Assembly: GCA_051867135.1 (NCBI GenBank) | Contig: JBJDYH010000223.1 | Coordinates: forward strand, 11,597 to 75,596 | Direction of reading: 5' to 3' | Length of the DNA stretch: 64,000 nt | Origin: Faecousia sp. | GTDB lineage: Bacteria > Bacillota > Clostridia > Oscillospirales > Oscillospiraceae | Part shown: piece by piece, positions 20,373 to 63,337 of the stretch | How positions within the stretch are numbered: position 1 is the stretch's first letter | Layout of the letters: each line of letters starts with the position of its first letter | The notes under the pieces: generated by a model | The model's input: only the letters and a program-made list of their open reading frames with translations | Database searches by the model: none | Told to the model about the DNA's origin: nothing | Translations under genes and position numbers: made by a program

Positions 20373-20624
20373 TCAGGAAGTGAAAAAATCACCGCTGGCA
20401 GAGGTATAACAATCGCAATTATCCCAAAAATCCACATTGCTACGCGTCCGCATTCTGCTCGTGGAAATTCCCTCTATCTCCATATAGTCATCACACGCTT
20501 CATGATCCAGATCCTCGGGGCCTGTTGTAACTACAATGTTACAATTCTGCGCGATATCCGCATTGAGTTCATAAATCTGTAAGTCCAGCAGGGGTGTTTC
20601 ATATTTCTTTTTCAATTCAGACAC
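20373..20624 (-). CDS. Putative RiPP precursor peptide
   Basis: KKKYETPLL (YxxPxL RRE-binding leader), four Cys, directly upstream of kinase-rSAM-PqqD; start GTG 20624 or TTG 20615. Confidence 0.8.
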   Translation of the reverse strand: MSELKKKYETPLLDLQIYELNADIAQNCNIVVTTGPEDLDHEACDDYMEIEGISTSRMRTRSNVDFWDNCDCYTSASGDFFTS

Positions 20625-31361: not shown

Positions 31362-31635
31362 GAAACGCCGAGCTTGGCGGAATGTTGCGGCAAATCCACA
31401 GCGTAATACCCGGCATAAAAACGGAACGCCCTGCCGAGCATCGGCATCTACGATAATAATTGCCCACTTTCTTTCTGTCAGTTCCCATCATTCCATATTC
31501 ATAAGAAACGCCCAGTACAACCCGAATCCGGGATGTACTGGGCGTTCTCATTACGAACTTTACTGTCCTTGAAATACTCCTGTTGCGCCTTGGATAACTC
31601 CCGGCCTTGGGTATCCAAAGCTTCTCGGGATGTCT

Positions 31636-31872
31636 TTACTGTTCGCTCTCCTGTTCTTCTTCCTGTTTCCGCCGAGAAGATATTTGCAAGCACACTTCGT
31701 AAAGCTGGGCTGGTGTTGCGTCCAGATGGGACTCCATGAACTCTCCCATTTCCAGCATATCCTCGGGAAGCTCCAATTCCGCTACCATTGACAGAACTTG
31801 CAGTTTGCTGCATCCGTATTCTTTCAACAAATGTATGAGCATCTTCTGCTCTTCCGTTAATGACACGCTCAT
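31636..31872 (-). CDS. Nested small acidic protein (+1 frame inside the polyvalent fragment)
   Basis: SD GGAGGAG 7 nt before ATG 31872; aligns with 32182-32379 product. Confidence 0.7.
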   Translation of the reverse strand: MSVSLTEEQKMLIHLLKEYGCSKLQVLSMVAELELPEDMLEMGEFMESHLDATPAQLYEVCLQISSRRKQEEEQESEQ

Positions 31873-32181
31873 TTTCATACTCCTCCATTGCCATCTTCGT
31901 AAAAAGATGTTCGTTATTTGCTTTTCTGCCTATAGATACATACAGCAAAGTGTTATCATCTGTGATGCATATACCAAATAAGATATTTCCTTTGCTTTTT
32001 TCAGAGAAAACATTACTGTTAGAAGTTAATTGTGTGCCTCTGTTGTTATTGATTAGGTATTCTACCCTTGATTTTTCTTGCTTAGTTAAATTGGGAACCC
32101 AATGGCCATTTCTGCTGTAATTTACCTCTCCATCCACCAGCGGCTCCCTGCCTTGAGAATCCAAAGCTTCTCGTGAGAAAT

Positions 32182-32379
32182 CTACTTTTGGCTTATTTCC
32201 GCTACTTTTTTCAGAATTTTCGGAGTTTTTGCCATCTCGTTTTCCGCCATCCATTCCATCAGAGCGCACTGCTGTTCCTCGGTTTCCATTGCGGATACTA
32301 TCCCAACTATAGCGTCCTTTTCCACGCCGAAAATGCGAAGTCCAACTATTAAATGCTTTTGAATGTTCGTAAGTTCCAC
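32182..32379 (-). CDS. Nested small protein (+1 frame), paralog of 31636-31872
   Basis: SD GGAGG 9 nt before GTG; shared LTxxQKxLIxxLxxxGxxK..E..ExM..A..IS pattern. Confidence 0.7.
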   Translation of the reverse strand: MELTNIQKHLIVGLRIFGVEKDAIVGIVSAMETEEQQCALMEWMAENEMAKTPKILKKVAEISQK

Positions 32380-32630
32380 TTTCTAAGGCCTCCGTAAAAT
32401 TATCGATCGCAACCCGGTTCTTTTTGGTGATGCTAACTTTTACAAGGATTGTATAGTCCATAAAAGACTGATTGCTGTAAATATAGAAATAACCTCTAGT
32501 ATAGGCATACCATTGAGCAGGAAGGTCATTGTGAAACTGCCGCAACCTTTGGAAACAATTGTTATCCATCGTTTCTAGTTCAATGCTCCTACCGCCCGGC
32601 AGATATTTCAGAAAGTGTGCATCTTGGGGG

Positions 32631-32735
32631 TTGATTTCTCAGAATATATCTGCTAAACTGTATTTAGGAGCTGATATCAGGGAGGGGGCTTGATCGTTTT
32701 CAGGCGCACTCCCCACGACATCGGCTTCTATTTTG
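32631..32735 (+). ncRNA. Putative antisense small hairpin RNA with sigma-A promoter
   Basis: TTGATT(32631)-17-TAAACT(32654) with extended TG; stems 32665-32678/32717-32730 and 32680-32693/32700-32713; T tract. Confidence 0.6.
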
Positions 32736-38934: not shown

Positions 38935-41900
38935 TTATTCTACGGATTTCAGCGCCTCTGCCATATTGATTTTTTCAAGACGGAAGTACAAAATCAAATC
39001 CACCAAGCAAGCGCAGAACATAGTAAGTACAATAGAGATAATAAAGCTGGGAGTACCGATTCTGGCTTGCAGCCAGACAACATCCACCTTGATCTGTGAG
39101 ATCACAAAAATCAGCAGCAGCTTGCCTCCCAGCAGGCCAAGCCCTGCGCCTACGGCTGACAGGAGAAGATTTTCCTTAAATACATAGGCAGCCGTCTCCC
39201 CGGCTCGGAAGCCCAAAACCTTAATGGTAGCAATCTCCCGAATGCGCTCGGTAATGTTGATATTGGTAAGGTTATACAGTACAATGACCGCCAAGGCCGC
39301 AGCGCAAACCACAACCGTCACCACAACAAGATCCAGCGCTTCCAGCATAGTGCCTACTTGCTCGGCAAGGTCCTGACAAACGGTTACATGGATAACTCCA
39401 TCCGCTTGGGAAGCCTTTGCGCTAACAATATGGGCATCCTGGTACTCATCCACATTCAGGCAAGCAACCTGCAAGGGTGCCTCTTCGCCCAACTGGTTGA
39501 AATAGGTATCCCGGGATATTACCACATAATTATACACATAGTTTTCATAAATGCCGCTGACGGTAACATGGATTTGCTGCATTTCGGAATTGTTCAGGGT
39601 GATGCTGTCACCCACAGACAAACCCATCATTTCCGCAATGCCCACGGAAACCAAAGCCTCATCTTTCCCCGGCATAGGCAAAGGCTTTCCATCATAATGG
39701 AAGTCCATAAAGCCGCTCAAGCCATCATCGGCACAAATCAAGGTAATTCCTCTGGTGGTGCCTCCGTCAGAAATTTCTCCGGTGCTTTGGTGATAGAAGT
39801 AAATCTCCTGAGCATAATCCCCCATGTCTTCATAGAAACCCTCTATCTGCTGCTGCGAACAGCCTTGGGAGAAGCGGATATCCATATCATAAAGGGTGAT
39901 TTCCTCAAATTGATAGTCCACAATATTCACAATGGAGTCCCGCAAGCCAAAGCCGGTAAGCAGCAGCGCTGTACAGCCGCCGATGCCTACCATCATCATA
40001 AGCAGACGCTGCTTATAGCGAACCACATTGCGAAGCGTAACTTTATTCAAAAAGCTTAAGCGGTTCCAGAAGGGCAAATACTCCAAAAAGATTTTCTTGC
40101 CGGAGGTCGGGGCTTTGGGGCGAATCAGCTCCGCCGGAACATTGGTAAGCATTCTGCGGCAGCAATACCAAGTTACCAGCAGGTTGACCGCGGTGTAAGT
40201 CAGCACAACGCCGCCGCACAAATACCAATCAATATGCAGCTCAACCTGAGATGTGATATTGAGGAGGATGCCATAGGCCTTCCACAATACGATTGGGAAA
40301 ATGATGCTGCCCAAAACCACACCCAAGCCGCAGCCGATGATCGCCGCCGAGCCGGAATATCTGAGGTATTTGCTGATGATCTCCCCATTGGAGTACCCTA
40401 ACGCTTTCAAAGTGCCGATTTCGGTGCGTTCTTCCTCCACCATGCGGGTCATGGTGGTAATACACACCAGAGCGGCAATCAGCAGGAAGAATGCCGGAAA
40501 AACGGTAGAAACACCTTTGACGATATCAGAGTTGTTGTCAAGGGCCAGATAGCCTGTATTGGTATTACGATCCATCAGGTATAGGCTAGGCTCGCCCATG
40601 GATGCAATGGTTTCGGCAGCCTCGTCAAGCTGCCGTTTGGCATCTGCAAGCTCCGCTTCGGCATCGGCAAGCTCTTGCAATGCTGTTTCTTTGCCGGAAT
40701 TGTAGGTTTCCCAGCCCTCCGTCAATGCCTTTTCCCCTTCTTCCAGAGCATCCATGCCCTCCTGAAGCTGGGTACGCTTCTCGGCCAGCTCCTTCTCCCC
40801 TTGGGCAAGCTGGGCTTTTCCGTCGGTTATCTGTGCCTTTGCCTTGCTAAATTCTTCCTGGGCCAGAGCTTTTTGCTCCTCAAGCTGGGCAAAGCCATCG
40901 TTTATTTGCTTTAATGCATCCTCCAGCAGCGCCTTATTATCCAGCAGCTCCTGACGCTGTGCCAGCAATTCGCTGCGCTGCTGACGAAGCTGCTCCAACT
41001 GCTGAGAATATTCGTCATACTGCTGCTGCAGCTCCATTTGCTGCTGAATGCGGCTGCGCTGCTCCTGCTCCAGCTTTTCCAACTGGGTGCGAAGCTCGTT
41101 AATAACAGATTCCTGCACCCCCAAATCCTCAGCTGCATCCAAGGCTTCCCGGGCCGCAGAAATGGCGCTTTCTCCCGCGGCATTTAATCTGGCCAGCACA
41201 TCAATACTGATTTTTATCTGGGAAAGGCCTCTTTCCAGTTGAGAAATGCCGCTGTCAAGCTGAGAAAGGCCATCATCGATTTGCAAAAGGCCATCGTTTA
41301 CCAGCGCAAGATTTTCACTAACGGTTTTATAGTTTACCAAAAGCTCTTTTTCGGCAGCTTCAAACTGTTCATTTGCCGCCTTTTCCTGAGCTTTCAGCTC
41401 CTTTTCGCCGTTTGCAAGCTCTTGCTTTTTCTGCTGAAGCAAAGCTTCGGCCTCAGCAAGCTGGGCCTGCCCCTCTTCCAGCAAAGCTCTGTTGTCTTCT
41501 AACTCCTGCTGGGCTTCCAGCAGCTCTTTCTCGCCCTCAGTAAGCTCCTGCAATACCGTCTCTTTGGCATCCAGATATTCCCGGTATCCCCGGTCGTATT
41601 CTTCCGTACCCTCTTGATATTGGGTTTGAATGTCCTCCTTTACCTGCTCATAGCGCTGTTGGGCCAAAGGAAGCAGGATAGGTTCCAAAGAATCGGCTAC
41701 GGTATCCACAGCATCATCGTATTCTTCCGTATATACCTTCCGAGGGCCGTCTATGGTAATTGCAATCTCTGTATAGTAATCCACCTGAAAGCTATCCTTG
41801 GGCAGGTAGATAAACCCGGACACAGAGCCGCTTCCAAGGCTTGTGCTTCCCCGGGACATATCCATGTATAAAGGGCTGCTGACATAGCCCACTACTGTTA

Positions 41901-42408
41901 GCGTATGCTGGGCAAAGCTGTCCAAAGTTGTCTGGTCATTCTCGGAAGATATGGTAATGGTGCTGCCCAGCACACGATTATCCACATGGAAGCCGTCTAC
42001 CAAACATTCTCCGGGATTTTCCGGCATACGGCCGCCTTGCAAACGCACTTTGTCCACCTTGTCCGGCAGGGCGTAAAACTTGTACACATTGTCAGCGTCT
42101 TGGCTCGCTTCCGGGCGCGCCAAAGCATCCAGAGAAATGACACCCTCGGCGTTTTTTACTCCGGACAGCTCTTTGACCTCGGCAAGCTGGGCATCCGTCC
42201 AGCCGTATGTATTCAGCAGCCGCAGGTCAAACATATTCTGCTGATCCATGTACTTCTGGCCCGTAGCGATCATATCGCTCTTGGTGGTACGCAGACCCAC
42301 AAACATTCCCGAGCCTAACGCAATAATTGCCACAATGGCAATATACCGGGTGAGGGACTTTCGGATGGAACGCAGAAGGTTTTTCCCCATTACAGTTTTC
42401 ATTACCAT
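38935..42408 (-). CDS. FtsX/MacB-type ABC transporter permease with long coiled coil
   Basis: Two FtsX domains (RMVEEERTEIGTLKALG; ERIREIATIKVLG). Confidence 0.9.
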   Translation of the reverse strand: MVMKTVMGKNLLRSIRKSLTRYIAIVAIIALGSGMFVGLRTTKSDMIATGQKYMDQQNMFDLRLLNTYGWTDAQLAEVKELSGVKNAEGVISLDALARPEASQDADNVYKFYALPDKVDKVRLQGGRMPENPGECLVDGFHVDNRVLGSTITISSENDQTTLDSFAQHTLTVVGYVSSPLYMDMSRGSTSLGSGSVSGFIYLPKDSFQVDYYTEIAITIDGPRKVYTEEYDDAVDTVADSLEPILLPLAQQRYEQVKEDIQTQYQEGTEEYDRGYREYLDAKETVLQELTEGEKELLEAQQELEDNRALLEEGQAQLAEAEALLQQKKQELANGEKELKAQEKAANEQFEAAEKELLVNYKTVSENLALVNDGLLQIDDGLSQLDSGISQLERGLSQIKISIDVLARLNAAGESAISAAREALDAAEDLGVQESVINELRTQLEKLEQEQRSRIQQQMELQQQYDEYSQQLEQLRQQRSELLAQRQELLDNKALLEDALKQINDGFAQLEEQKALAQEEFSKAKAQITDGKAQLAQGEKELAEKRTQLQEGMDALEEGEKALTEGWETYNSGKETALQELADAEAELADAKRQLDEAAETIASMGEPSLYLMDRNTNTGYLALDNNSDIVKGVSTVFPAFFLLIAALVCITTMTRMVEEERTEIGTLKALGYSNGEIISKYLRYSGSAAIIGCGLGVVLGSIIFPIVLWKAYGILLNITSQVELHIDWYLCGGVVLTYTAVNLLVTWYCCRRMLTNVPAELIRPKAPTSGKKIFLEYLPFWNRLSFLNKVTLRNVVRYKQRLLMMMVGIGGCTALLLTGFGLRDSIVNIVDYQFEEITLYDMDIRFSQGCSQQQIEGFYEDMGDYAQEIYFYHQSTGEISDGGTTRGITLICADDGLSGFMDFHYDGKPLPMPGKDEALVSVGIAEMMGLSVGDSITLNNSEMQQIHVTVSGIYENYVYNYVVISRDTYFNQLGEEAPLQVACLNVDEYQDAHIVSAKASQADGVIHVTVCQDLAEQVGTMLEALDLVVVTVVVCAAALAVIVLYNLTNINITERIREIATIKVLGFRAGETAAYVFKENLLLSAVGAGLGLLGGKLLLIFVISQIKVDVVWLQARIGTPSFIISIVLTMFCACLVDLILYFRLEKINMAEALKSVE

Positions 42409-50486: not shown

Positions 50487-52046
50487 TTAACACAAGCCGG
50501 GGGTTTCGTGTTGATTACGATTTCCATTGATCCAATCCACCACAGGCTGCGCTTTGGACATTACATCCTCCCATGTGAGCTCTTTTCCGGTAGCTACATA
50601 CTCATAGAAATCATTAAGAATCCCGGAGAGTTCCTTGACATCACCTTTGGCATCGGCATTTTTTATCAGCTCCCTGGCAGCAGCTTCTACGCTGCTCTTG
50701 GTAAACTTAGTGCCTCCGGTAACTTGACTTTGCAGCTTCAAAAGCTGCTTGAGGTACTGGTTGTCCTCCTGAAGTTTGGCATTGCTCTTTTCCAGAGCCT
50801 TGTTGGCTTTCTCAAGAAGCTTTTCCTGCTCAGACATCTGCTTGCTGACAAACTCCCGGCTAAAGCGAATGTCATGGTTCGTAGTTGGGTTGGTATTGTC
50901 CACATTTTTCGCTTTTGTATGGCTATTTACCAATGCTACCCACGCAGTTTTTACAATATCATAATTGCGGAACATGGTTCGTAAGCCATTTTCGTATGCG
51001 CCAGAATGAATTTGGCCAGCAATACGAGCAAGAATCTCCTCTGCGTACAGCACAGATGCGTCACTATTACTGTGTTTAGAAACCTGATATGCAGATGCCA
51101 CGGATAATGCAGTTAAAATATATCGTTCAGAATAGTCAATTAGTTGGTCACGAAGAATGGAAACAAATTCCTCTCGCCCAGCTGCTTCACCCCAAATATG
51201 GAACGCCTCATGGCCCGCAACCTCCATAGCATTACCCGCAAATCTTGCCTGAATACCAACGATACATTCATTCCCGTCAATTAATGATATGGAATTATCC
51301 TTAATGCGATAGGTGTAACCATCGTCGTTATATTCCATTTTTTGAAAGGCAAAGGAATCTATCCCTAGTTTCTGGAGTTCTCTTTGGGTTCCTTCAGCAT
51401 AGGCAGTGATATTATACGAGTTTGCTTCTTCGTAAGCATACGCAATCTGCCCGATTTTTCCGCTTGTTTGTGCGCTTCCATGCACTCTCGTAAGAAAACT
51501 TTGTCTATCTTCAGATTTTCCTTTTTGTCCATTTCGAAAAACCTCCTGCTTTTTCTCCTTACTTGCTTTTATATTCATTTCAGGCGGTGCTCTGCCTTGA
51601 TTCTGCGCCTTTTCCTCCTGGGCAATGCGCCGGATTTCCTGCATAAACCCTTCCATATCCGCCCGGTCTTCCGGCGCAAAGGCGTTCATGTCTGCCTGGC
51701 TGTCGCATACGATTTCCGTAAACACTTCCATCGCCAGCGCATCGGTGCCGGTTTCAGCGTCATATCCCATGTCGAACGCTTCGGAATACATGGTGATAAT
51801 ATTCTTTACCGCTTCCTCTGTGCCGCAAAGCTCAACCAGCCGGTCATATACCTTGCGAACATCCACCTTATCGTTCAGGTTTTCGCTTTCATGGCCAAAT
51901 TCCCGGTGCGCCATCTCGTGACGCAGTAACTGCTGCGCCGTGAACTCAGGGTGGTCCGCACGGATAAAAACTTTATCGCCGCAAATTGCCGCCCTCACTT
52001 CACCAACGCCTTTAATTCTCAGGTTTCCGCCGGTAAAGCATACCAC
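50487..52046 (-). pseudogene. Fragment of phage polyvalent protein with two HExxH metallopeptidase-like modules
   Basis: HEMAH (51906-51920), HEAFH (51198-51212), NVDNTNPTTNHDIRFSRE linker; no clear start; runs into host terminator. Confidence 0.7.
51365..51532 (-). CDS. Nested 55-aa ORF (+1 frame), MDKKENLKIDKVFLRECMEAHKQAEKSGRLRMLTKKQTRIISLPMLKEPKENSRN
   Basis: AGGAGG SD 9 nt upstream of ATG; hand-translated, absent from the ORF track. Confidence 0.55.
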   Translation of the reverse strand: MDKKENLKIDKVFLRECMEAHKQAEKSGRLRMLTKKQTRIISLPMLKEPKENSRN

Positions 52047-53101: not shown

Positions 53102-53265
53102 TAGACTGTCGATAAACTCGGCAATTTGGGATTGAAGGGGGCGATTGAGAACATCGCCCCGCAGAAAAAACTCCCGTTTTATTGATATATTTGGGCAAAT
53201 TCGTAATATTTTACAAAGGGCCGATGAGGGCATCGGCTCCTACGACCACCTTTTTCGACAGTCTG
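53102..53265. mobile_element. 164-bp MITE with (T/C)AGACTGTCGA termini and REP-like doublet
   Basis: TIRs 53102-53112/53255-53265; internal ggggcgat..atcgcccc and gggccgatg..catcggctcctac hairpins. Confidence 0.75.
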
Positions 53266-53280
53266 AAGCCACCCGAAGGG

Positions 53281-53464
53281 GTGGCGCGGAGAAGGAGGGA
53301 TTTGTTTAATCAAGGTAGCAACCAGTTTTTGAACTGGTTGCAGCAATATGCCACCGGCATATTGCGATTTATAATTTTCAAATCCCTCCTTCTCCGCCCA
53401 AAAAAAGAAGCCACCCATTTGGGTGGCTTCCTTTTTTTGGCGGAGAAGGAGGGATTTGAACCCC
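53281..53464. repeat. Three tRNA-Ser 3'-end copies including probable prophage att site (53438-53463, minus)
   Basis: TTCAAATCCCTCCTTCTCCGCC at 53377-53398 (+) and 53439-53460 (-); degenerate copy 53281-53304; arm-like repeats tcat(a/c)tcaaaa at 53511-53533. Confidence 0.75.
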
Positions 53465-53567: not shown

Positions 53568-56500
53568 TCACCCATTTTTAGCATCCAGCACCTGCTGTCC
53601 AACCTGTTTACTGTATGGGTTATTCTTAGCGCTGGTAGAGCCGGTGGCAATCTGCCAAAGGACAGCTTTCTGTTCCATAGTCATACCGGACATACTATCA
53701 ATGGCTGTCTGTATCTCTTTGTTCGAGTAACTGCCATTGCCGTCAGCATCGTAGTCGGACTTAATCTCCTGTAGCTTGATATAGTTTCTGGGTGTTACCC
53801 CGAAATCATAAGCTAACTCCACTTTAGCATATTGCTTCTCATCCATAGCACCACGGAGCGCCGAAAGCTGTATTGCTTCATTCGTGGAAAAATCAACACA
53901 TGTCTGCCATTTCTGAATATCGGTTACCTTATCATTACCCGGCTCCGGTTCCAAATCCTCTAAAGCATCGACAAGATACAACGCCTCATCCTTGGAAAGG
54001 CCAGCCTCCGTATATTCCAGATAGTCGTCTAAATCGCCATTTGCCTGTACCATAGTCAAATACTCATCAACAGTCATACCTTCTTGCATGGCATCCAGCA
54101 GTTTGGCATATTCCGTAGGCTTCCCGGAAGAAGTCTCCATATCGGTACCCATGAGCTCGCCTACCAGCAGAAGCTTCTCGTTCTCGGTCAAATCCGCATC
54201 AAGAATCACTTTCCGTTTGGCAGCCTTTTCGCCCCTCTCTAGCAGCTCAGCAGCCCGGTAGCCATACACAACATCCAGAATCGTTCCGGCATCCACGCCC
54301 TCATCGTCCAGTATATCCATAACCTTTTCCAAAGTCTCGGATTCAAGAATACCATAAACAGCGATTGTTTTTCCCTCATCAGAAATATTGCTGCTCCTGA
54401 TTATGTCCAACTGCACATCCTTTTTTGCTTTGTCTTTGGTTTTCTCAGCGCTTCGCAGCGCATCAATAAGTTCATAGGCATCTCGGGCTTTCACGCCGGC
54501 ATCCAGCATATCTTTGTACATAGCAGTTTGCTTTGCACCAAGGCTATCAAAGCCGCTCTCAACCCACTGCACGGCCTCAGGTACAGAGTTCTTGCCCATA
54601 ACCGCAGTACGCAGCGCATTTCCCAACGCTTCGATAGGGCTTTCCTTGTAAATCGGATACTGCAAAATGTCCTGACCATTTTTATCAACGGTGTAACTCC
54701 CGCCCTCGGAAAACGCCTTCAGACCCTTCCATGTTTTTGAAATCTGACCGCCGCCGAATGGTGGAATCACATAGGCCAGTTTGTTCAGCTCATCCTGCAC
54801 CTTCTTCCACTTATACCGTCCATCCCAATCATCATTGGTCAGCACATCGACGAGTACACTTAAATCCGGGATGGCAGAAGAAACAGGGATTCGTCCTCCA
54901 TCGGTTTCGATGCCAAACAATGTCAGAGCCGCAGAAAACGGCAATTCGCCCAGACTGCTCTTCGCAATATTCTTAACGGCCTCCCCAGCACCTTTTTTGT
55001 TGGTTTCAAAGGATACATTTCCGCTTACTATACTGCTCAAACTCGGAATTTTGTAACCGGTTGTGTCTCCAACAAAATCGTTGATCAGGCTGATTGGGTC
55101 AAGCGCAGGCCGTCTTCCGAACAGAAGCTCGAACAAATCGTTGAAAAGATACGCCCGAACAAAGTACGAAAGAAACGACATTGCGATCTTAAAAGCAGCC
55201 TGTCCACGATAATGCCGGGGCATATCCTTGAACACTTCGCTGTACTGGTTATTTACCTCAAGCTGGAACTGGGTAAACATCTTTATGATTGGATTTACTG
55301 AATGGAAAAGCGTAGGCATATCGCCCTTAGCTCGTCCTGCCATAACACCGGCGGCAAAAATATCCGCCTCATGCAAGGCTTCCGTCTCCGACATACCGCT
55401 TTGCAGGTTCTTGTAGTAAGCAGCACGAAGAAGCGTGTCCGAAGAGAAGTTATCCACGATATTCATAAGAATACCCGCGAGCTCAGAGGCCTTCTGAATC
55501 TTAGTCTTTACCAGAACATCACTACCCCGTCTGCTGGTCAGGAAATCCGACTTCCCCACAATGCCATCATCCGCATTCCGCAAAGTATCCCACATAGCCC
55601 GCAGCATATTCCTGTCGCCGACACGGCCGGCAGCCTGAACAAGGGGAATAAAATTCGTCATGGCAGAGCTCACATTGCCTACTACCATATTTGCGCCAAC
55701 CCGGCTGTTCAAGTTTTTTGCAAGACGGTAAAACCGATTTCTGCCAAAAAGTGCCTCAACTCCACGGTCAAGTCTGCTTTTTTTGTTAGCCAAAAGATTG
55801 GTGTACTCATCCAGCTCATTCACGAAGTTGCTCAGCGAATACTTGCCTTTCTCCAATGTTGACTTAATTAAGTCTTCCTTTTCCGTATCGCTCAAATCTT
55901 CTCTTGTGCGGATATTATCAACCTGCTTTTGGATACCTTCCTCGCTGGTTCGATAGCGTATTTGGGTGGCCAGCGCACGCAGGTTTTGGATATTCTCGGT
56001 ATGGAAGATTACATCAGACACGCCCTCAATGTACCGGTCAAAGCCCTCTACAGCGTCATACACGGTATTAAACCCCAAACGCTCCTGAGCATTGCCAAAC
56101 CAGGTAGTACCCGGCTTGAATGTATGGGTAAGGCCGTTTATGGTTGTGGGCAGCACATCTACCTGGGTATCAATACCAAGTACCTTACCGAAGTATGCCA
56201 TAATGCCATCGCCGCCGTCCGGCTGGAAATGGGGGAAGTATCCCTTACGGTAGCTTACCGGCTCATAGCCGAAGCGAACCCGAACTTCATTCATCATGGT
56301 AAACAACTCATCGTAAATCTGCCTGAACTGCTCCACGCTGCGCTGAATCTTGGCTTTATCCAAATTAGGATTACTTCCCCAAAGGTCAAGAATGACCGCC
56401 TGCCACTCCTCCAGCGTCTTACCATCCCGGGTCTTGATATAACCTTGTGTCTGCTTCAGTGATTCAATATTGTCCTGAGCCTCACCAAGAAGCTGAACAG

Positions 56501-59500
56501 CGTGGGCTTCGGAGACAACATTTCCTTTGGCAACTTTTCGGCTCAGATTCATATCTGCGACACGGTTGCGCATCTCCGTTTTGAATCGAGTACGCGCGGC
56601 TTCGGCTATCTGCACCGGCTCAAAGTAGGCGCTTAAAACCTGCTTGGCAATCACCTTATCGGGAACAATGTCATAGACATTCCTCGTCATGGTCTCGCGG
56701 CTGTACTGAATGCCCATGGCCTTATCTTTCCATTCGTTGGCAGTTTCCAGATAACTATCCGCTTTTTCAAACAGAGCTGCATGCACCTGCCGTTTATACT
56801 CAGTAATGGACTTCCGGGCCTCCTCATACTCCTTCTTGGCCTCGTAAACCTCCCGAATGCCTTCCACATTATCCTTGCTGGGGTCTAGCTGTTCCAGAGA
56901 CATTTCACCCCGCAGCAGCTTGCCAACAATTTCCTCGTCGGCCGCCGTAAGCAAATTTCTTCTCACGGCCCGTTCGGAATTCCGCCGGGCATTCTTCATT
57001 TTGTTTCCGGCTTCCAGAGCTTCCTCCACGGTGCGTACCTTGGGCATCTGAGCCTTTTTCTCGGCCTGTGCCGCTTTATCCTCGCCGAACCGGCGAACCT
57101 TCCACAGGTCATTCCTGAGCTCATCGATAACGCTGTCAAAGCTCTCCCGTGCTGCCTGCTTCATCGTTCCGGCTGCCACGCCATAGTATTCATCCAGGCT
57201 CTGCTTCTGTTTCACAATGGAGTTAGCAACTTCATACATCTTCACCAGTTGATCTGCCGGGTGGGTAATCTCCTCCGGGAACAGCTCCGGCGCCATGCCC
57301 CGCAGCTCATCGTAAAAAGTATCAACCGGAATACCGCCCTCATTGACGATCCTCAGCGTCCACCGGCTTCGCTTTTTGAAATCCAGAAAGTCCACAATAT
57401 CTCCCTGATCACGGGCATCCAGAGTGACCGCTGTAGTACGCAGCTTATCCTTGATATCCTTGTACTGGTCATAGAATTCCCGGTCTTCAATTTCTCCCTT
57501 GCGCCAAGCGTCTTCAAAAAGCTGGTCTGCTATCTCCTGAGATATCTTTCCGGTTTCCAAATACGCATCAGAAAGCTGTTGCACCGTACCCCTCAGAAAA
57601 TCTCTTGCCTCCGCGTAGGGAACGCCAAATGTGTTACGAAGCGCCTGAAAAGCCTTCCACTCCTTGCTTGTCAAAGTATCTCTTGCTTTCGCGGGAAGAT
57701 TTTCCCGAGCAATAGGCGTTACCTCCTCAGCTTCCAACGGCTCTGCCTTTGGCTCAGCCCTACCGCGCATTTCTTCTACCTCTCCGGCAATCTGCGCCTC
57801 GTCCGCATCTTGGTAGCTATCGTCAAACGAAAATGTTTCCTTTGCTAAATATGTATCATAAACCGATTTATCTCCGTATTCAAAGATATCCATGAAAGGA
57901 ACGCCCTCAGTCTTGACATTTGAGCCTTCATAAGATATACTACCTATGTAACCACCCTGAGTGCAGGTGATAGGCGCAGAGAGGCCTATCGCCGAAAGCA
58001 GACGGGTGGTTCTTTTTTTGTCCGCGTATAGTACATCGCTCGACTCAAGGAAAAACCTTCCGTTTTCATCGGCATTACGATTCCGGGTCTCAGTCTTTGT
58101 ATAAACACTATTAACTTTCTGCATATCGTTAATATAAAAACCTTTTTCCACAGGGTGCATATCAAAGACGACAAGAACAGGACGCCTATTTTCGGCTAAA
58201 ACAGAACCATACAGAATCAATCGAGAGTTTATACCCTTGCTGGTCAAAATTAATATGGGATCTTCAAGGATTTTTGGAATATCTGCCAAAATATCAATAG
58301 AAACTTCTGGATGATCGTGGAGTATTTTCTTTGCCTTTTCCGGGGTTAGGTATATATCACTTTCGATACCTCCAAGTGCTTGGATCACACTTCCTGTGCT
58401 TCCAAGAATGAATGTAGGGACATCAGTGCTTTGCCCAAATCTATTCCAACTGCGAATATCTTCAGCAAAAGCAATAGCCTCCCCTGAGTAAACGCCCGGC
58501 CTTTCAGTAGAAAACCTCTCCACCGGCGGCCCGGTGGGCTGCTCCGTACCGTTCTCCTGCATCTGCAATCGTCCGACACCGTTTTCGTCCATCCATCCTC
58601 TCACGCCCTCTGTGAACCTGTCAGCCCCAGCGCCAAAGGCATTGATGCCTGCGTATGCGTCCGCGAGAACTTCCTCCACACACCGTCTGAAGGTTTCCTC
58701 GTACTCATCGGCAGAGGCATTCTCTTGACAGCCATAAATCGCCCAAAGGTTATCCTTGTAGGTATCCAGTACCCGGCTAAACTCCTCCATGGAATGCTGC
58801 TCCATAATACTTTCCGCAAGGAAATCGACCATAGAGCGAAGCTCGTTTGATTTCCAGTGGAAAATCTCATGGTCACCGAGCTGCTCCACAGAAACTTTGT
58901 TGTCCGCCTGAAGAATAATCTTATCGGATTGGAAAACACCCCGAGCATAGCCAACGCGGCCGTCAGACCTGGCAACCTCGATGCCGCCTATTACATAAGT
59001 AACCGTGCATCCCGTTTCCTCATAAATCTGCTTGGCAGTAAGCTGCAATTCGGCGTCCCAATGGCTCTCAGGGATTACTAAGAGATTCTGCGCATCTGTG
59101 CCGTTCTGTAGACCCAGTTCCTTGCTGCTGACATTCTGGATTATGCCTTGTCGCCGTAAATCATTCGCAGCATTCTGTCTTTGAACGCTTGCCACTGTGC
59201 CTGAGTAGGCTGCGGGCCGTTTCCCTGCTGCGCGGCTTCCCAGGCTTCCAGCTTGCTCTGCGGTACCCGGGTCAGCATACCGTCCCTGCCCTCCATCAGA
59301 TACACCGTTTCCTGTGACGGTTCCGGGCTGGGTAACTGTAGGGGTCTGGGTTCGTTCGTTGCTGTTTGCATTTACTGTACCTCCGTTCTTATTTGTAAAG
59401 TTAAACTTATTGCCAATCCTACTTACCGCTTCGCCAGTAACTTCTTTGACGGTCTTGGACTGAACCTCTTTGGTCGCCCGAGCATAAGCCCGGCCCTCTG

Positions 59501-62057
59501 TCTCGGACTCCATCCGGTCGATTTCGTCCATAATTTGATTATATGTGTCAAAGTCAATTTCACCGGCAGCAAAAGCATGCTCCACCGCCCCCCGGTCTAT
59601 GCTCTCGCCTCTCGAAGTGTCAGGTTCGGACACATTTTCAATTCCCATCTGCCGGGCAATCTCAGCCTGGAAAGCCTCTTGGCCAGTTATCGACTTCTGC
59701 TGGGTATCATTCTGGGTTTGTGGTGAGGATTCCGTGGGAGTATCCTCCCTGCTTTCTTCGCTCTGGATGCGCTTTCCTTGTTCCTCGGCCGCGGCTGCAG
59801 CATATTCAGCACGAATAGCATCCTCATCGGCCTGAACAAGCTGAACAATCTCAGCACCGCTCAATTCTTTGCCACTATTTACCCTCTGCTGAAACTGCAC
59901 AGCCAGCAAATAGCTCAAGCTGTCATGGTCAGATTCCAAACCCTCCGCAATCAGCTCTTCCACGGAGCTTCCATATATTTGCTTAACCCTTTTGTTTTGC
60001 TGATGATTGGAATAGGCATTAACCGCAGAAGAAAACACACTCTCACCGCCGCCAAGCAATAAGCCAACGCTGGCACCCATGCCAAATTCCTCGGCCATCT
60101 CCTTCAGATTCGCAAGCTGCGTGTCTGGTGCATAGGCAACCTTCGCCACCAAATTGTTTACAAAGCCCTGTAAGACTTCCTCGCCGCCTTCTTCCGCAGC
60201 GGATACCAGCCACGCAAGCAGCTTATTGCCGTCGCCCATGAGCTCCTCAGGCAGGCCCTGAATACCGCTTGTACCGCTGAAACCCACCTCAATGCCGGAG
60301 TTGATTAACGATGTAATTGTGGCACACAAGGCAGCCGTCGTGTCGCTGGCACCCATGGACTTGGCCTGTTCGTAGTCGCCGCTATATGTTCTCCCATAGC
60401 TGAGCCAGAAGCTGGGATTCCTCGCCATGTTCTGAACCGTAATACCTGCCTTCGTCAAGAAATTGCCGCTCATATACGCAGCGTTTGTGGCAAGCCTGGA
60501 AGATGTGGCTCCAGCGGAGCTTCCCGCTGTCATGAACGCAAGCACCGCATCCGGAACAGCAGCAACCGTGCCCTCGATGATGCTGCCCGCAATATCGTAA
60601 GCCTTGCCGCCGCCCATTTTCTCCTTATAGAGGTTTCTGTTAAATGCCTGGGCATTATATGCATCGCTGTAATAGTCAGAAACAGATGAAACAGGATTAT
60701 TCTTCCACCCCAACGCCTGCAAGGGTTTTCCTACCAAATAGTCAAGAGTACCGGTAATGCTTTTGTTGAAAGAGCCTAACCCAGATATGGCAGAAGCTCC
60801 TAACCAATCCAAAAAATTGCCAGCAGAAAAGTTGCTGTCTCCTGTCATCAGCGAATACCACTCATCAGGGTCTACACCTGCCTTTTTCATTTCGGCCATA
60901 ACTGTATTCTTATAGCTATCACTTACCTTACCATTATTGGCTACAATATACTGCAGAGCTTCCAGAACGGTGCGATTCTCACCCGGCATGCTTACCTCGG
61001 AAAGAATCTGCATTTTCTCGTCCATAAGCTTGGAATTGTACAGGTTGGTATAGAAAAGATTCTCATCGCCGGTGCTGGAAACCATTTTAACCTGCGCTTC
61101 CCGCAAGGTCATGGCCTCCGGTGCATACGCTTTCAGCCATGCAAGTTCTTCCTCCGAAATATCCGGCGTTCCCTTGCTCGCAGACTCCCGCATTTCCTTG
61201 ACCTGCTTATACAACTTACCCCATTGAGAATTGACAGACTTTCGTTCTTCCAAAGCTTCAGGCGTGCCAATTTCCCAAAGTTCAGCAGCTCTCTCAGCCA
61301 ATTCGGTTTTTTGCCGCTCAAGTTCAGCGATTTCCGCGCTGGTATTCGCATCGATGCCCTCTATCAGACATTCCAGCTCCGTATAACTCTTACCGGCGTA
61401 CTTTTGACGATAAGCCATATCCTGCTGCCATGTTTTATAGCTGTCTTCCGAATCCCAGTTCCCATAGAAGTCTGCCAATTCTTTGATTGTGCCGGAATTG
61501 TCTTTGCTAATCTCGGCATACAGGTTTGTAAGCTGCTCGGAGAGCTCTGCATCGCTTCCGTAATCCGCATACAGCTCGCTTATCCTGCTCAGAATCTCCC
61601 TGCGCTGGTTGTCGTAGTCCGTTCGGAAACGCTCTATCTCGTCCTGACTGCGCCATCGATCACTGCCAAATTCCAAATTCCAGCTATTGTAATGATTGTA
61701 CAGTCTGTCCTGCAAATCGCGAATCTTGTATTCCGGGTTTTCCCTGACAAGCCCCTGCAAATCATCAAAAGAAGGCTTGAGGCCGGAAGACAAAGAAAAA
61801 TTAACATTGTCTTGGTACTTTTGGTAGCCAGTTTGTGCCTTGCTGCCGGATTGCGCGGCGTTTTCAAGTCTTGCCTGGGCCTGAAGATATTCAAAAGAAG
61901 GTTTGGTTGTCACAGACTCATCGTCTGGCTGAACGGTCGCAGGCTTATTGACGGGCCGGGCAGGCTGCCCATCCGCCTCGGCAGAATCATCATAATTAAC
62001 TGCCTCCGGCTTTTGGTAAGCCAGTTTTTTCAATTCTTCATAAGACGGCTTTCCCAT
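53568..62057 (-). CDS. Phage large polyvalent (DNA ejection-type) protein, 2829 aa
   Basis: EEGGEEVLQ-type helical region, HEIFH zincin module (58857-58871), MuF-C/PBECR-like module (KILHDHPE..IPKILEDPILILTS), LPD38-like C-terminal region (FTQFQ, PFGGGQISK); domain names from recall. Confidence 0.85.
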   Translation of the reverse strand: MGKPSYEELKKLAYQKPEAVNYDDSAEADGQPARPVNKPATVQPDDESVTTKPSFEYLQAQARLENAAQSGSKAQTGYQKYQDNVNFSLSSGLKPSFDDLQGLVRENPEYKIRDLQDRLYNHYNSWNLEFGSDRWRSQDEIERFRTDYDNQRREILSRISELYADYGSDAELSEQLTNLYAEISKDNSGTIKELADFYGNWDSEDSYKTWQQDMAYRQKYAGKSYTELECLIEGIDANTSAEIAELERQKTELAERAAELWEIGTPEALEERKSVNSQWGKLYKQVKEMRESASKGTPDISEEELAWLKAYAPEAMTLREAQVKMVSSTGDENLFYTNLYNSKLMDEKMQILSEVSMPGENRTVLEALQYIVANNGKVSDSYKNTVMAEMKKAGVDPDEWYSLMTGDSNFSAGNFLDWLGASAISGLGSFNKSITGTLDYLVGKPLQALGWKNNPVSSVSDYYSDAYNAQAFNRNLYKEKMGGGKAYDIAGSIIEGTVAAVPDAVLAFMTAGSSAGATSSRLATNAAYMSGNFLTKAGITVQNMARNPSFWLSYGRTYSGDYEQAKSMGASDTTAALCATITSLINSGIEVGFSGTSGIQGLPEELMGDGNKLLAWLVSAAEEGGEEVLQGFVNNLVAKVAYAPDTQLANLKEMAEEFGMGASVGLLLGGGESVFSSAVNAYSNHQQNKRVKQIYGSSVEELIAEGLESDHDSLSYLLAVQFQQRVNSGKELSGAEIVQLVQADEDAIRAEYAAAAAEEQGKRIQSEESREDTPTESSPQTQNDTQQKSITGQEAFQAEIARQMGIENVSEPDTSRGESIDRGAVEHAFAAGEIDFDTYNQIMDEIDRMESETEGRAYARATKEVQSKTVKEVTGEAVSRIGNKFNFTNKNGGTVNANSNERTQTPTVTQPGTVTGNGVSDGGQGRYADPGTAEQAGSLGSRAAGKRPAAYSGTVASVQRQNAANDLRRQGIIQNVSSKELGLQNGTDAQNLLVIPESHWDAELQLTAKQIYEETGCTVTYVIGGIEVARSDGRVGYARGVFQSDKIILQADNKVSVEQLGDHEIFHWKSNELRSMVDFLAESIMEQHSMEEFSRVLDTYKDNLWAIYGCQENASADEYEETFRRCVEEVLADAYAGINAFGAGADRFTEGVRGWMDENGVGRLQMQENGTEQPTGPPVERFSTERPGVYSGEAIAFAEDIRSWNRFGQSTDVPTFILGSTGSVIQALGGIESDIYLTPEKAKKILHDHPEVSIDILADIPKILEDPILILTSKGINSRLILYGSVLAENRRPVLVVFDMHPVEKGFYINDMQKVNSVYTKTETRNRNADENGRFFLESSDVLYADKKRTTRLLSAIGLSAPITCTQGGYIGSISYEGSNVKTEGVPFMDIFEYGDKSVYDTYLAKETFSFDDSYQDADEAQIAGEVEEMRGRAEPKAEPLEAEEVTPIARENLPAKARDTLTSKEWKAFQALRNTFGVPYAEARDFLRGTVQQLSDAYLETGKISQEIADQLFEDAWRKGEIEDREFYDQYKDIKDKLRTTAVTLDARDQGDIVDFLDFKKRSRWTLRIVNEGGIPVDTFYDELRGMAPELFPEEITHPADQLVKMYEVANSIVKQKQSLDEYYGVAAGTMKQAARESFDSVIDELRNDLWKVRRFGEDKAAQAEKKAQMPKVRTVEEALEAGNKMKNARRNSERAVRRNLLTAADEEIVGKLLRGEMSLEQLDPSKDNVEGIREVYEAKKEYEEARKSITEYKRQVHAALFEKADSYLETANEWKDKAMGIQYSRETMTRNVYDIVPDKVIAKQVLSAYFEPVQIAEAARTRFKTEMRNRVADMNLSRKVAKGNVVSEAHAVQLLGEAQDNIESLKQTQGYIKTRDGKTLEEWQAVILDLWGSNPNLDKAKIQRSVEQFRQIYDELFTMMNEVRVRFGYEPVSYRKGYFPHFQPDGGDGIMAYFGKVLGIDTQVDVLPTTINGLTHTFKPGTTWFGNAQERLGFNTVYDAVEGFDRYIEGVSDVIFHTENIQNLRALATQIRYRTSEEGIQKQVDNIRTREDLSDTEKEDLIKSTLEKGKYSLSNFVNELDEYTNLLANKKSRLDRGVEALFGRNRFYRLAKNLNSRVGANMVVGNVSSAMTNFIPLVQAAGRVGDRNMLRAMWDTLRNADDGIVGKSDFLTSRRGSDVLVKTKIQKASELAGILMNIVDNFSSDTLLRAAYYKNLQSGMSETEALHEADIFAAGVMAGRAKGDMPTLFHSVNPIIKMFTQFQLEVNNQYSEVFKDMPRHYRGQAAFKIAMSFLSYFVRAYLFNDLFELLFGRRPALDPISLINDFVGDTTGYKIPSLSSIVSGNVSFETNKKGAGEAVKNIAKSSLGELPFSAALTLFGIETDGGRIPVSSAIPDLSVLVDVLTNDDWDGRYKWKKVQDELNKLAYVIPPFGGGQISKTWKGLKAFSEGGSYTVDKNGQDILQYPIYKESPIEALGNALRTAVMGKNSVPEAVQWVESGFDSLGAKQTAMYKDMLDAGVKARDAYELIDALRSAEKTKDKAKKDVQLDIIRSSNISDEGKTIAVYGILESETLEKVMDILDDEGVDAGTILDVVYGYRAAELLERGEKAAKRKVILDADLTENEKLLLVGELMGTDMETSSGKPTEYAKLLDAMQEGMTVDEYLTMVQANGDLDDYLEYTEAGLSKDEALYLVDALEDLEPEPGNDKVTDIQKWQTCVDFSTNEAIQLSALRGAMDEKQYAKVELAYDFGVTPRNYIKLQEIKSDYDADGNGSYSNKEIQTAIDSMSGMTMEQKAVLWQIATGSTSAKNNPYSKQVGQQVLDAKNG
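57913..58020 (+). ncRNA. Putative antisense small hairpin RNA inside the polyvalent gene
   Basis: TTGACA(57913)-17-TATACT(57936); stems aaccaccc/gggtggtt and ggtgataggc/gcctatcgcc; T7 tract. Confidence 0.7.
59141..59371 (-). CDS. Nested 76-aa protein (+1 frame inside the polyvalent gene)
   Basis: GGAGGT SD 7 nt before ATG; globular-looking sequence while the host frame is a G/Q/T/A-rich linker. Confidence 0.65.
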   Translation of the reverse strand: MQTATNEPRPLQLPSPEPSQETVYLMEGRDGMLTRVPQSKLEAWEAAQQGNGPQPTQAQWQAFKDRMLRMIYGDKA

Positions 62058-62068
62058 ATCGCACCTCC

Positions 62069-63337
62069 TTAAAGGCCAAGTTTCCGGGTAATAGTAATTA
62101 CATCAGATTGTGTAACGATGCCGCTCTCATAAGCACGCTGCAACCGCTCATTGACAGTTGTCTTCCATGTATTAGTGTTTTGGCCAGCCGAGGCCATAGG
62201 AAGATTCCTCACAAAATTAAATCCTGTATCACTCAGCGTATATTGCCACGGTGTAGCATTGATAGCATCGCCCAGATTGCTATATCCCTTTGCAGTCAGC
62301 GCATTTTGAGTAGCCGGGTCAAGCGTCCCGCTCTGAGTCACACCAAGCCACTTCTGAAGCCCCTTGATTTGGTTGGCGCTATAGTTATTACTGCCGGAAC
62401 CGCTGTCGATTACAGGTTCATAGGTACTGCCATTGTTCCAGGGCTGCTCAACCATTGCCTCAGCCAGCGAGTTAAAGTTCGCATTCTTCAGGGCAGCACG
62501 GCTTTCCGGGCCAAACAAGCCGTCCGGGGTCACACCAAGCCAATTTTGCAAAGCCATAATATCCGCTTGGCTATAGCCCTCATTATCCCAGTTTTTAACC
62601 CCGCCGTATATCGATGCTGAGCCGCTGCCGGAACTGTTGCCTAAACCGCTGGAGAAACTCCCGCCGGAACCGGAGCTTTCGGGAATACCCAAAATCTCCG
62701 CAACTTCCGGTGTAGCATATCCCAGCGTATTATAAAGATTCAAAGCATTGGCAATTTTCTGTTGATCCCGCTCCGCCTGAAGCTGCTGCTGGGTGATATG
62801 CTGGCTGTAGGCGTCACTGTACAGCTCCGGGATAATATCCGCAAGTTTACCGGCATAGTAATCGCCTGCCTGCTGGGATGCCGTAATCGCCGCAGTGCTC
62901 GGCACGCCGCCGGTAAGTACGCTGGCTTTGGCCAAAGCGTTCTCGGCCGCACGGTCACCTTCACGAAGATACGCTTTCTTATAGGCCGCAAACCGGGGAT
63001 CAGTCTCCGGGTCATACTGAAAGCTTCCTTCAGAGGACTGCGGCATATTCCCGCTGTCCTCTTCGCCTCCCTGCGTCGGCAGCTGGCCAACATTTGAAGA
63101 CTGCGCCTGCTGCTGTCCGGCCACGGTAGAATAGGTCTTTCTAAGCTGGCTCTCAGCCTCCTGCGCCAACAGCTTTGCTTCCGGCGTGCTTGCCTTGCTT
63201 GCATCCTGTTTCAAGGTCAAAAGGCTCAAGCCAAACTCCGGGTATTTCTGCGTAGTTGCCAAATCCTCCTGGCTGAATTCCGGCAACATGCCAGACTTAT
63301 TTGCCGCGCTCAAGAAATCATCGTATGTATATGCCAT
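62069..63337 (-). CDS. Phage internal virion protein with two peptidoglycan-binding-like repeats
   Basis: FQYDPETDP..AY..AYLREG motif; IMALQNWLGVTPDGLFGPESRAAL and IKGLQKWLGVTQSGTLDPATQNAL. Confidence 0.75.
   Translation of the reverse strand: MAYTYDDFLSAANKSGMLPEFSQEDLATTQKYPEFGLSLLTLKQDASKASTPEAKLLAQEAESQLRKTYSTVAGQQQAQSSNVGQLPTQGGEEDSGNMPQSSEGSFQYDPETDPRFAAYKKAYLREGDRAAENALAKASVLTGGVPSTAAITASQQAGDYYAGKLADIIPELYSDAYSQHITQQQLQAERDQQKIANALNLYNTLGYATPEVAEILGIPESSGSGGSFSSGLGNSSGSGSASIYGGVKNWDNEGYSQADIMALQNWLGVTPDGLFGPESRAALKNANFNSLAEAMVEQPWNNGSTYEPVIDSGSGSNNYSANQIKGLQKWLGVTQSGTLDPATQNALTAKGYSNLGDAINATPWQYTLSDTGFNFVRNLPMASAGQNTNTWKTTVNERLQRAYESGIVTQSDVITITRKLGL

Follow-up and report, generated by a model that had tools for sequence, protein, structure and literature searches.

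Overprinted partner genes beside the zincin and MuF-C domains of a polyvalent phage protein as candidate antidotes

Polyvalent proteins are large multidomain proteins of phages in which zincin and MuF-C domains can occur together and whose genes lie beside virion genes; the work which describes them also defines the MPTase, MuF-C/PBECR and LPD3 domains (Iyer et al. 2017, PMC5512222). They are widespread but nearly untested, and the present analysis bears on the question of how phages and lysogens withstand the enzyme domains of these proteins. The accessible text of that work speaks neither of an antidote nor of an overprinted gene, and the words 'antisense', 'overlapping', 'promoter' and 'small RNA' have no occurrence in its main text. 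A second related group are the MuF polymorphic toxins, in which, according to the accessible part of the source, a nuclease or peptidase effector carried by a phage has a small ORF next to it as candidate immunity gene (Jamet et al. 2017, PMC5576092). The present analysis deals with a stretch of 64,000 nucleotides (nt) of Faecousia sp. DNA, in the following called the window, and with a polyvalent protein gene in it which carries two further genes within its coding sequence: a small protein gene nested in the +1 frame ahead of a zincin-like domain, and a predicted antisense RNA at the end of a MuF-C domain. In many phages the two hidden genes are conserved and under selection and hold a fixed place next to their cognate domains; the arrangement is real and widespread. 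The features concerned are the following:

53568-62057, minus strand: gene of the polyvalent protein of 2,829 amino acids (aa), taken from the open reading frame (ORF) call; the terminal gene of a prophage morphogenesis operon
58545-59123, minus strand: zincin-like metallopeptidase domain with HEIFH at about 58857-58871 and the invariant residues H96, E97, H100, E162 and D166 (predicted local distance difference test, pLDDT, of the model 94.7)
59141-59371, minus strand: nested gene of 76 aa in the +1 frame, a new family, predicted zincin binder and likely inhibitor (ORF scan, homologues, complex model)
59380-59384, minus strand: Shine-Dalgarno (SD) sequence GGAGG, 8 nt ahead of the nested ATG (from the sequence)
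58008-58334, minus strand: MuF-C domain of the BECR/RelE-type RNase fold with an invariant His in the N-terminal helix (Pfam, model, alignment)
57913-57941, plus strand: antisense promoter of the sigma-70 type, TTGACA-17-TATACT (11/12), which encodes S-I-x5-N-V-K in the protein
57947-58020, plus strand: predicted small RNA with an interrupted hairpin (57950-58011) and a U-tract terminator, overlapping the final MuF-C codons (from the fold)

A preliminary description of this DNA had read the 8.5-kb ORF as one protein with a zincin-like and a MuF-C module, and this was borne out by the HEIFH motif with a downstream Glu and by a MuF_C match at aa 1242-1350 (E-value 4e-11; 43.3 bits against a cut-off of 27.6), the only result of a Pfam scan of the whole protein. 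Both domains are internal (aa ~980-1350 of 2,829). As in the described polyvalent proteins, a mobile element encodes a large polypeptide that unites at least two conflict domains, and the gene sits among virion genes: terminase-, portal- and capsid-like ORFs, read by eye, lie upstream on the same contig (C223, part of a 3.5-Mb draft genome), and a neighbouring gene matches phrog_511, an internal virion protein. Judged from its place after the morphogenesis operon, the protein is probably packaged and injected.

The MuF-C model is closest to BrnT (VIA-align Z 7.7, root mean square deviation 2.5, 75 residues aligned) and to tRNases of contact-dependent inhibition such as CdiA-CT of Kp342 (Z 6.7; 2.8; 90), the nearest folds ranging from Z 7.7 to 6.1, where a Z under 8 is middling; Foldseek gave no match to this model at E <=0.001. 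The catalytic-type His is invariant in the 12 aligned domains. Profile score, BECR fold and N-terminal-helix His are those of PBECR/MuF-C RNases, and RNase activity is predicted. In the zincin, HEXXH and the downstream Glu, the hallmarks of zincins, are invariant in 42/42 aligned members, 41 of which have no Pfam match, five one-off spurious hits aside. Its likeness to solved zincins is weak (best Foldseek E 0.066, no match at E <=0.001), and its named relatives come mostly from Oscillospiraceae, which makes a gut clostridium the probable host.

The nested gene terminates where the zincin domain starts. By itself such an ORF is weak evidence, because synonymous-codon shuffles of the large gene (n = 1,000) yield 0.125 SD-ATG nested ORFs each in the +1 frame and 0.0 in the +2 frame; the case rests on conservation. 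In a reverse test 113 loci were fetched by the zincin and clustered at 80 % to 47, of which six were dropped for too short upstream DNA. A match to the +1 profile of the nested family lies upstream of the zincin in 41 of the 41 evaluable clusters and none was found in +2, a result which describes one zincin clade because the zincin profile was seeded from eight loci carrying the nested gene. An SD-ATG start is present in the strict form in 35/41 clusters and with a looser SD in all 41. The position is nearly fixed, the nested stop lying 8 nt before the start of the zincin model in most clusters. Within the overlap it is the third codon position of the host frame that is most conserved (1.04 bits, against 1.53 in the zincin), an order opposite to that within the zincin domain, and identity is higher in the +1 frame than in the host frame (0.376 vs 0.297), in an alignment that was built in the +1 frame. 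By these sequence comparisons, selection in the overlap favours the +1 frame. Translational coupling to an internal zincin start was considered and rejected, as no start codon is seen by eye at the nested stop in the window.

Relatives of the nested gene occur in the same arrangement elsewhere. A six-frame search of 301 genomes of the family recovered +1 copies before a zincin in one genome (G183) and twice in another (G093), one in-frame copy inside a membrane protein and two weak spurious matches. A profile search of the 301 genomes gave 22 matches, 20 of which were examined after exclusion of the window's own copy and of a second repeat in G101: a zincin follows directly in 16 and another domain in one, and the other three are a membrane fusion and two remnants. 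All seven viral matches (six distinct) are nested in +1 within ORFs of 2,233-3,419 aa. With phmmer, 83 homologous clusters were obtained, one clearly spurious (P0042), many short and many representing the tails of membrane proteins. Neither Pfam nor PHROG holds a match to the nested protein, the ESM Atlas search returned no usable one, and a word-indexed search with the single protein found nothing, whereas the six-frame and HMMER searches did match. Membrane proteins carrying the nested domain (L003, 928-2670, in G101; P0003, P0005, P0011, P0060), some with zinc-ribbon or Ada-type motifs, may serve in exclusion or as baits. In L003 the former linker frame of the polyvalent gene has stayed open throughout the nested domain, which suggests a capture. 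A further variant is locus L007 of G093, where a nested ORF of 180 aa fuses two nested families and a further nested ORF, of 50 aa, comes after a second zincin.

In an ESMFold2 model of the complex, the nested protein and the zincin score 0.73 against 0.00 for the best of three controls; the mark used for such scores is reached by 116/157 solved complexes and 2/215 mismatched pairs, counts which apply here only roughly. Contact agreement between model runs is at least 85 % and the pLDDT of the partner at least 75. The first strand of the modelled nested protein pairs with zincin strand 69-77 and contacts H96, E97, H100 and E162, and the partner wraps the helical subdomain of the zincin with 112-125 confident contacts. 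No similar chain was found by sequence among solved structures. The nested protein is thus predicted, by modelling, to bind the active site of the zincin.

The second hidden layer lies on the opposite strand. Its promoter ranks top among 16 sites in 12 kb, a total near the expectation of 14.1, and an antisense site of at least 11/12 arises in 0.4 % of 1,000 synonymous-codon shuffles of the large gene. The hairpin of about 65 nt has a z-score of -4.67, with 0/200 shuffles as good, and its apical loop is GCAGAGAG. An Rfam scan of the window matched only tRNA and not this unit; over 20 loci it gave one chance miRNA hit (E 0.33). A hammerhead reading of the RNA was rejected, since its core motifs are unmatched.

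Such units recur. Of 39 MuF-C matches in 401 genomes 30 were available as loci, and 29 were evaluated because one ORF ends right after the domain; an antisense promoter of at least 10/12 is present at 22 of them, compared with 1.79 expected from synonymous shuffles. Furthermore, in 42 zincin-led polyvalent ORFs (367 kb), picked irrespective of nucleases, 21 antisense sites of at least 11/12 (0.3 expected) and 26 complete antisense units of promoter, hairpin and U-tract (0.45 expected) were counted, and no unit on the sense strand. Among 53 in-gene promoters 41 come after an LPD3 (23), MuF_C (13) or PBECR3 (5) domain at E <0.01, one MuF_C being counted twice; the other 12 have no Pfam domain of this kind ahead, and some in-gene RNA units likewise lack a domain (L078). 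LPD3 and PBECR3 each have RNA types of their own, which suggests that the so far uncharacterised LPD3 is also an RNA-acting effector. Up to four units occur per gene, tied to individual nuclease-type domains. Tandem in-frame units were also seen (L078, host ORF aa ~1131-1169; L015, L016, L156), some without a preceding nuclease-type domain. The preliminary description had placed a nested +1 gene before the zincin and an antisense RNA unit after MuF-C; both are present, conserved and tied to specific effector-type domains. The enrichment beside effector domains which it proposed to look for thus exists for the RNA units. For +1 SD-ATG ORFs it is seen at the position before the zincin, the remaining nested ORFs in the 42 genes numbering, by subtraction, about 17 vs 13.1 expected, barely above chance.

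The stem is maintained as a stem. RNAalifold on a MAFFT alignment of 25 sequences recovered three apical pairs only, because the outer stems misalign; pairs were then counted on 15 RNAs, chosen for equal length out of 29, in which 19/21 pairs show two-sided changes, more than in any of the 500 shuffles or the slid controls, and pairing amounts to 79 % vs 65 % in shuffled sets. The commonest loop of the MuF-C RNAs is AAUUGGA, closed by a GGC/GCC stem; its protein reading is G-L-Q-L-P. Within this motif Gln is encoded by CAA in 13/13 cases (5.1 expected) and Leu by TTG in 11/11 (1.8 expected); the loop is therefore fixed as RNA, beyond the need of the protein. Synonymous-site constraint, which had been proposed as a check, is in this way found in both layers, in the host wobble positions of the nested overlap and in the loop codons. 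The AAUUGGA loop is scattered across the MuF-C tree. Co-evolution of loop and nuclease was not shown, as the label needs 15 changes on a poorly resolved tree of 73 rows, a few of them near-duplicates or selected by pattern. In size, stem and central UUG the loop resembles the host tRNA-Gln(UUG) arm GGC-CUUUGAC-GCC, which on sequence grounds is a lead only. Several RNA types not associated with MuF-C are capped, by eye, by GNRA or UUCG tetraloops.

Copies of the RNA outside polyvalent genes give a further argument. A covariance-model search of 151 bacterial genomes found 16 matches. Intact MuF-C ORFs contain four of these, including three sequences used for training; the other 12 are orphans without a full MuF-C, with at most the tail of the domain remaining. 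In the orphans the old frame closes 10-62 codons ahead of the loop, and the neighbours are ordinary chromosomal genes or tRNAs. One of them belongs to the window's own genome (C336; L171, G000:C336:448-524); it has an 11/12 promoter and the canonical loop and lies near a tRNA-like att fragment. In viral contigs, an exact-pattern scan found 26 of 26 matches (17 distinct) in intact ORFs after a full MuF-C. Because orphans persist in bacteria without the nuclease and phage copies lie in intact genes, a trans-acting antidote that hosts can retain is favoured. The contrast is only indicative, since phage and host copies were searched for differently, by an exact pattern and by a covariance model which itself favours conserved loops. 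By analogy, the RNA orphans would behave like orphan immunity genes.

In the model which we prefer, with a probability of roughly 55 %, the small protein and the hairpin RNA, both overprinted, would act as trans-acting antidotes to the zincin and to the RNase-fold domains. We infer this function from sequence and modelling, because the protein is predicted to dock at the active site, because the loop is conserved for recognition by something besides its own complement and because RNA genes are kept without enzyme or target mRNA. The small protein would be translated from the late mRNA through a ribosome-binding site of its own and act as a propeptide shifted to another frame. As a chain by itself it would be left behind or drop off at ejection, so that the protease becomes active only later. 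The RNA, driven constitutively by its sigma-A-type promoter, would be produced in the lysogen and shortly after entry of the DNA, and would bind the cognate BECR nuclease by mimicking a substrate without being cleaved; the 7-nt loop common among these RNAs is centred on UUG like the anticodon arm of tRNA-Gln(UUG). Immunity genes cannot lie downstream of an internal domain in a continuous protein and would therefore be overprinted and travel with the domain, and hosts may retain the RNA from decayed prophages as protection against injected nucleases. The earlier proposal that each module carries its own antidote is too wide; the zincin and MuF-C do have hidden partners, with a putative antidote role, and the ease of shuffling given there as the purpose is a conjecture. 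In a more far-reaching scenario, which we consider rather doubtful, temperate gut phages inject tRNA-cutting polyvalent RNases while the incoming genome at once makes an anticodon-mimic RNA antidote from a hidden host-type promoter; cells which accept the phage would be rescued, those which destroy its DNA by restriction or CRISPR would be punished, and bacteria would counter with orphan antidote RNAs from dead prophages and with a membrane-tethered protease-binding domain.

Several points weigh against the antidote model. Docking at the active site suits a substrate or an activator as much as an inhibitor. Full complementarity of the RNA to the mRNA would provide antisense action at no further cost, and G-U pairs favour the antisense strand just mildly (61 vs 39; 18/29 more stable). 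The MuF-C clade of the window itself has unrelated, divergent loops of 8-10 nt, and AAUUGGA departs from the tRNA-Gln loop CUUUGAC at 4/7 positions. Seven of the 12 orphans keep promoters of 11-12/12, two have weak ones and three have none; two orphans (L178, L185) directly follow genes on the same strand and may be mere terminators. Three sense-strand promoters of 11/12 in the 42 polyvalent ORFs, vs 0.25 expected, are unexplained; they could drive nested genes in lysogens. Kin among the compared sequences are not independent, and the limits given above for the seeded zincin profile, the +1 alignment, the equal-length RNAs and the phage/host comparison belong here as well. The main rival for the RNA layer is a classical cis-antisense brake of the type I kind, in which the loop kisses the mRNA hairpin, RNase III cleaves and leaky expression is silenced, the host orphans being silencers of incoming phage mRNA or leftovers. 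This is possible, if somewhat unlikely. It would account for the perfect complementarity with a strong constitutive promoter, for a size of some 70 nt, internal loops and a loop pair UUGG/CCAA as in CopA/CopT and Inc/RepZ, and for a sense-strand hairpin that folds almost equally well. However, one unit per gene would suffice for a brake, yet a unit is tied to each nuclease-type domain; the loop stays constant while the stems diverge, which self-complementarity does not demand; and orphans exist without a cognate mRNA. GNRA and UUCG tetraloops are poor at loop-to-loop pairing, and the RNA types that carry them also speak against a brake.

For the protein layer, which is a separate question, so that the chances of the rivals are not to be summed with that of the antidote model, the nested protein may serve the zincin as substrate, activator or assembly chaperone, its membrane-anchored homologues then being baits that sense an injected protease. 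We hold this to be unlikely. Strand pairing in the cleft, as predicted, is a substrate-like binding mode, the nested domain also terminates or sits within membrane proteins, and autoprocessing roles are proposed for these peptidases in the accessible text of Iyer et al. (2017, PMC5512222); but in the model the partner also embraces the helical subdomain, with a number of contacts more like that of a tight inhibitor. That the RNA is itself an effector or cofactor (a guide, an anti-defence RNA or a packaging signal), bound or processed by the BECR-fold domain and of other benefit to hosts, is quite improbable. RNA-binding roles of inactive PBECR domains and the harm which cleavage of host tRNA would do to the phage are both raised in that text (Iyer et al. 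2017, PMC5512222), and a constitutive promoter would fire directly after entry. Against this stand the invariance of the catalytic-type His and the toxins among the nearest folds, and the RNA is nearly devoid of an unpaired stretch to guide with. Finally, chance or a by-product of protein constraint keeps next to no weight, and it is refuted for the conservation though not for function: single +1 SD-ATG ORFs do appear in 12.5 % of shuffles and promoter-like sites are not enriched over the entire 12 kb, but synonymous shuffles retain the protein and lose the signals, the stems covary, and orphans retain the RNA despite a broken frame.

Outside the large gene the window contains further traces of polyvalent genes:

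53436-53463, strand not assigned: attachment (att)-like site; its 28 nt recur without a mismatch at the 3' end of tRNA-Ser(GGA) on contig C295
52931-53002, minus strand: orphan RNA unit, LPD3-associated in type and located outside the att site (promoter 11/12, though its spacer is 15 nt; z -3.41)
50487-52046, minus strand: chromosomal fragment of a polyvalent gene; it contains two zincin-like motifs and, nested in +1, an ORF of 55 aa (51365-51532)
31499-32569, minus strand: chromosomal polyvalent-gene fragment adjoining tRNA-Pro, with two nested +1 ORFs (32182-32379 and 31636-31872)
32665-32730, plus strand: candidate orphan RNA hairpin (weak promoter, 8/12; z -5.55)

The att-like site comes after the polyvalent gene. 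Both fragments lie outside the att-bounded prophage and have kept the host frame open, and are possibly orphan-immunity islands. The orphan unit at 52931-53002 matches the in-gene unit of L156 with 82 % identity over 72 nt (E 5e-14). Since the hairpin at 32665-32730 has no BLAST match to the 53 in-gene RNA units, position and shape are the grounds for relating it to them. The two nested ORFs beside tRNA-Pro have relatives that are again nested in +1 in five loci, with a stand-alone copy in one locus and a broken copy in one; for 51365-51532 no homologue was found in the fetched loci or the own genome, and no wider search was made. Four nested ORFs in the window, all in +1 and with canonical SD spacing, had been reported. 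All four are indeed in +1, three of them outside the large gene in the two fragments; three (31636-31872, 51365-51532, 59141-59371) were found by a strict GGAGG/AGGAG plus ATG scan of 23 window genes, and the fourth (32182-32379) has a GTG start, 9 nt behind GGAGG. Their common frame was rejected as evidence, since codon structure predicts it, as the shuffles show. Adjoining the att site are a REP-like palindrome, strong hairpins and an inverted partial copy of tRNA-Ser (53220-53260 and 53343-53430). Directly upstream of the polyvalent gene lies a virion-region gene of 422 aa with peptidoglycan-binding domains (62069-63337), and large host genes of the window encode a 1,398-aa protein with weak ricin-B/DUF4097 matches (20617-24813) and an FtsX permease (38935-42408).

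The three-layer arrangement had been taken to be undescribed, and neither a paper nor an Rfam or Pfam family was found that says otherwise; the literature search, subscription papers and bioRxiv supplements aside, gave no description of hidden antidote layers. The accessible portions of a BECR preprint (10.64898/2026.08.28.747851), of an Aca paper (PMC13551039), of PMC10910872 and of the Minerva preprint (10.64898/2026.09.22.753630) contain nothing relevant; the last states that RNAs within coding sequence cannot be modelled by its method. Closest come two unnamed candidate RNAs, HMP2_1418 and HMP2_5063, listed near PBECR, LPD3 or MuF_C (Fremin and Bhatt 2021, PMC8040213, Table S1), which may be members or cousins; in the part of that source available they are uninterpreted table rows, mostly of other taxa, and the motif AAUUGGA does not occur in the searched supplement, files 7 and 8 excepted. 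Standard annotation overlooks both hidden layers. They provide named, cloneable partners for the commonest domain classes, a small protein for the zincin and one small RNA each for MuF-C, LPD3 and PBECR3, explain the recurrent protein motifs G-L-Q-L-P and S-I-x5-N-V-K/N as imprints of RNA loop and promoter, and point to an unrecognised class of bacterial small RNAs, possibly captured phage antidotes.

Among known systems, the pairing works like that of effector and immunity and yet lacks the defining features of three families. The toxins of Jamet et al. (2017, PMC5576092) are, in the accessible text, C-terminal with a small ORF after the stop codon, while here the domains are internal, the partner of the zincin is overprinted, that of the nuclease is an RNA, and no separate immunity gene follows a C-terminal toxin; what is shared with polymorphic toxins are orphan copies, of putative protective function (12/16). 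With type III toxin-antitoxin systems (ToxIN, CptIN, TenpIN) the locus shares an RNA proposed to neutralise an RNase by binding, and unlike them it has a single hairpin without tandem same-strand repeats upstream of the toxin, encoded downstream on the opposite strand, and a BECR fold as a domain of a 3,000-aa protein. Type I and cis-antisense RNAs (RatA-txpA, CopA/CopT, Inc-RepZ) are likewise short and convergent, with their own promoter and terminator and a 7-nt loop, and here too a predicted antisense RNA overlaps the mRNA of the toxin; no stand-alone small toxin gene is controlled at its ends, however, but an internal enzyme domain of a 2,829-aa ORF is the neighbour, the RNA lies mid-ORF and not at a ribosome-binding site or in a 3' untranslated region, the loop is kept across divergent stems and orphans exist. 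Finally, like the metallopeptidase propeptides and inhibitors AprI and TIMP, the nested protein is a small partner predicted to sit in the zinc cleft and encoded just 5' of the protease; it differs from AprI and TIMP in being encoded in another frame of the same DNA and in bearing no sequence likeness to solved chains.
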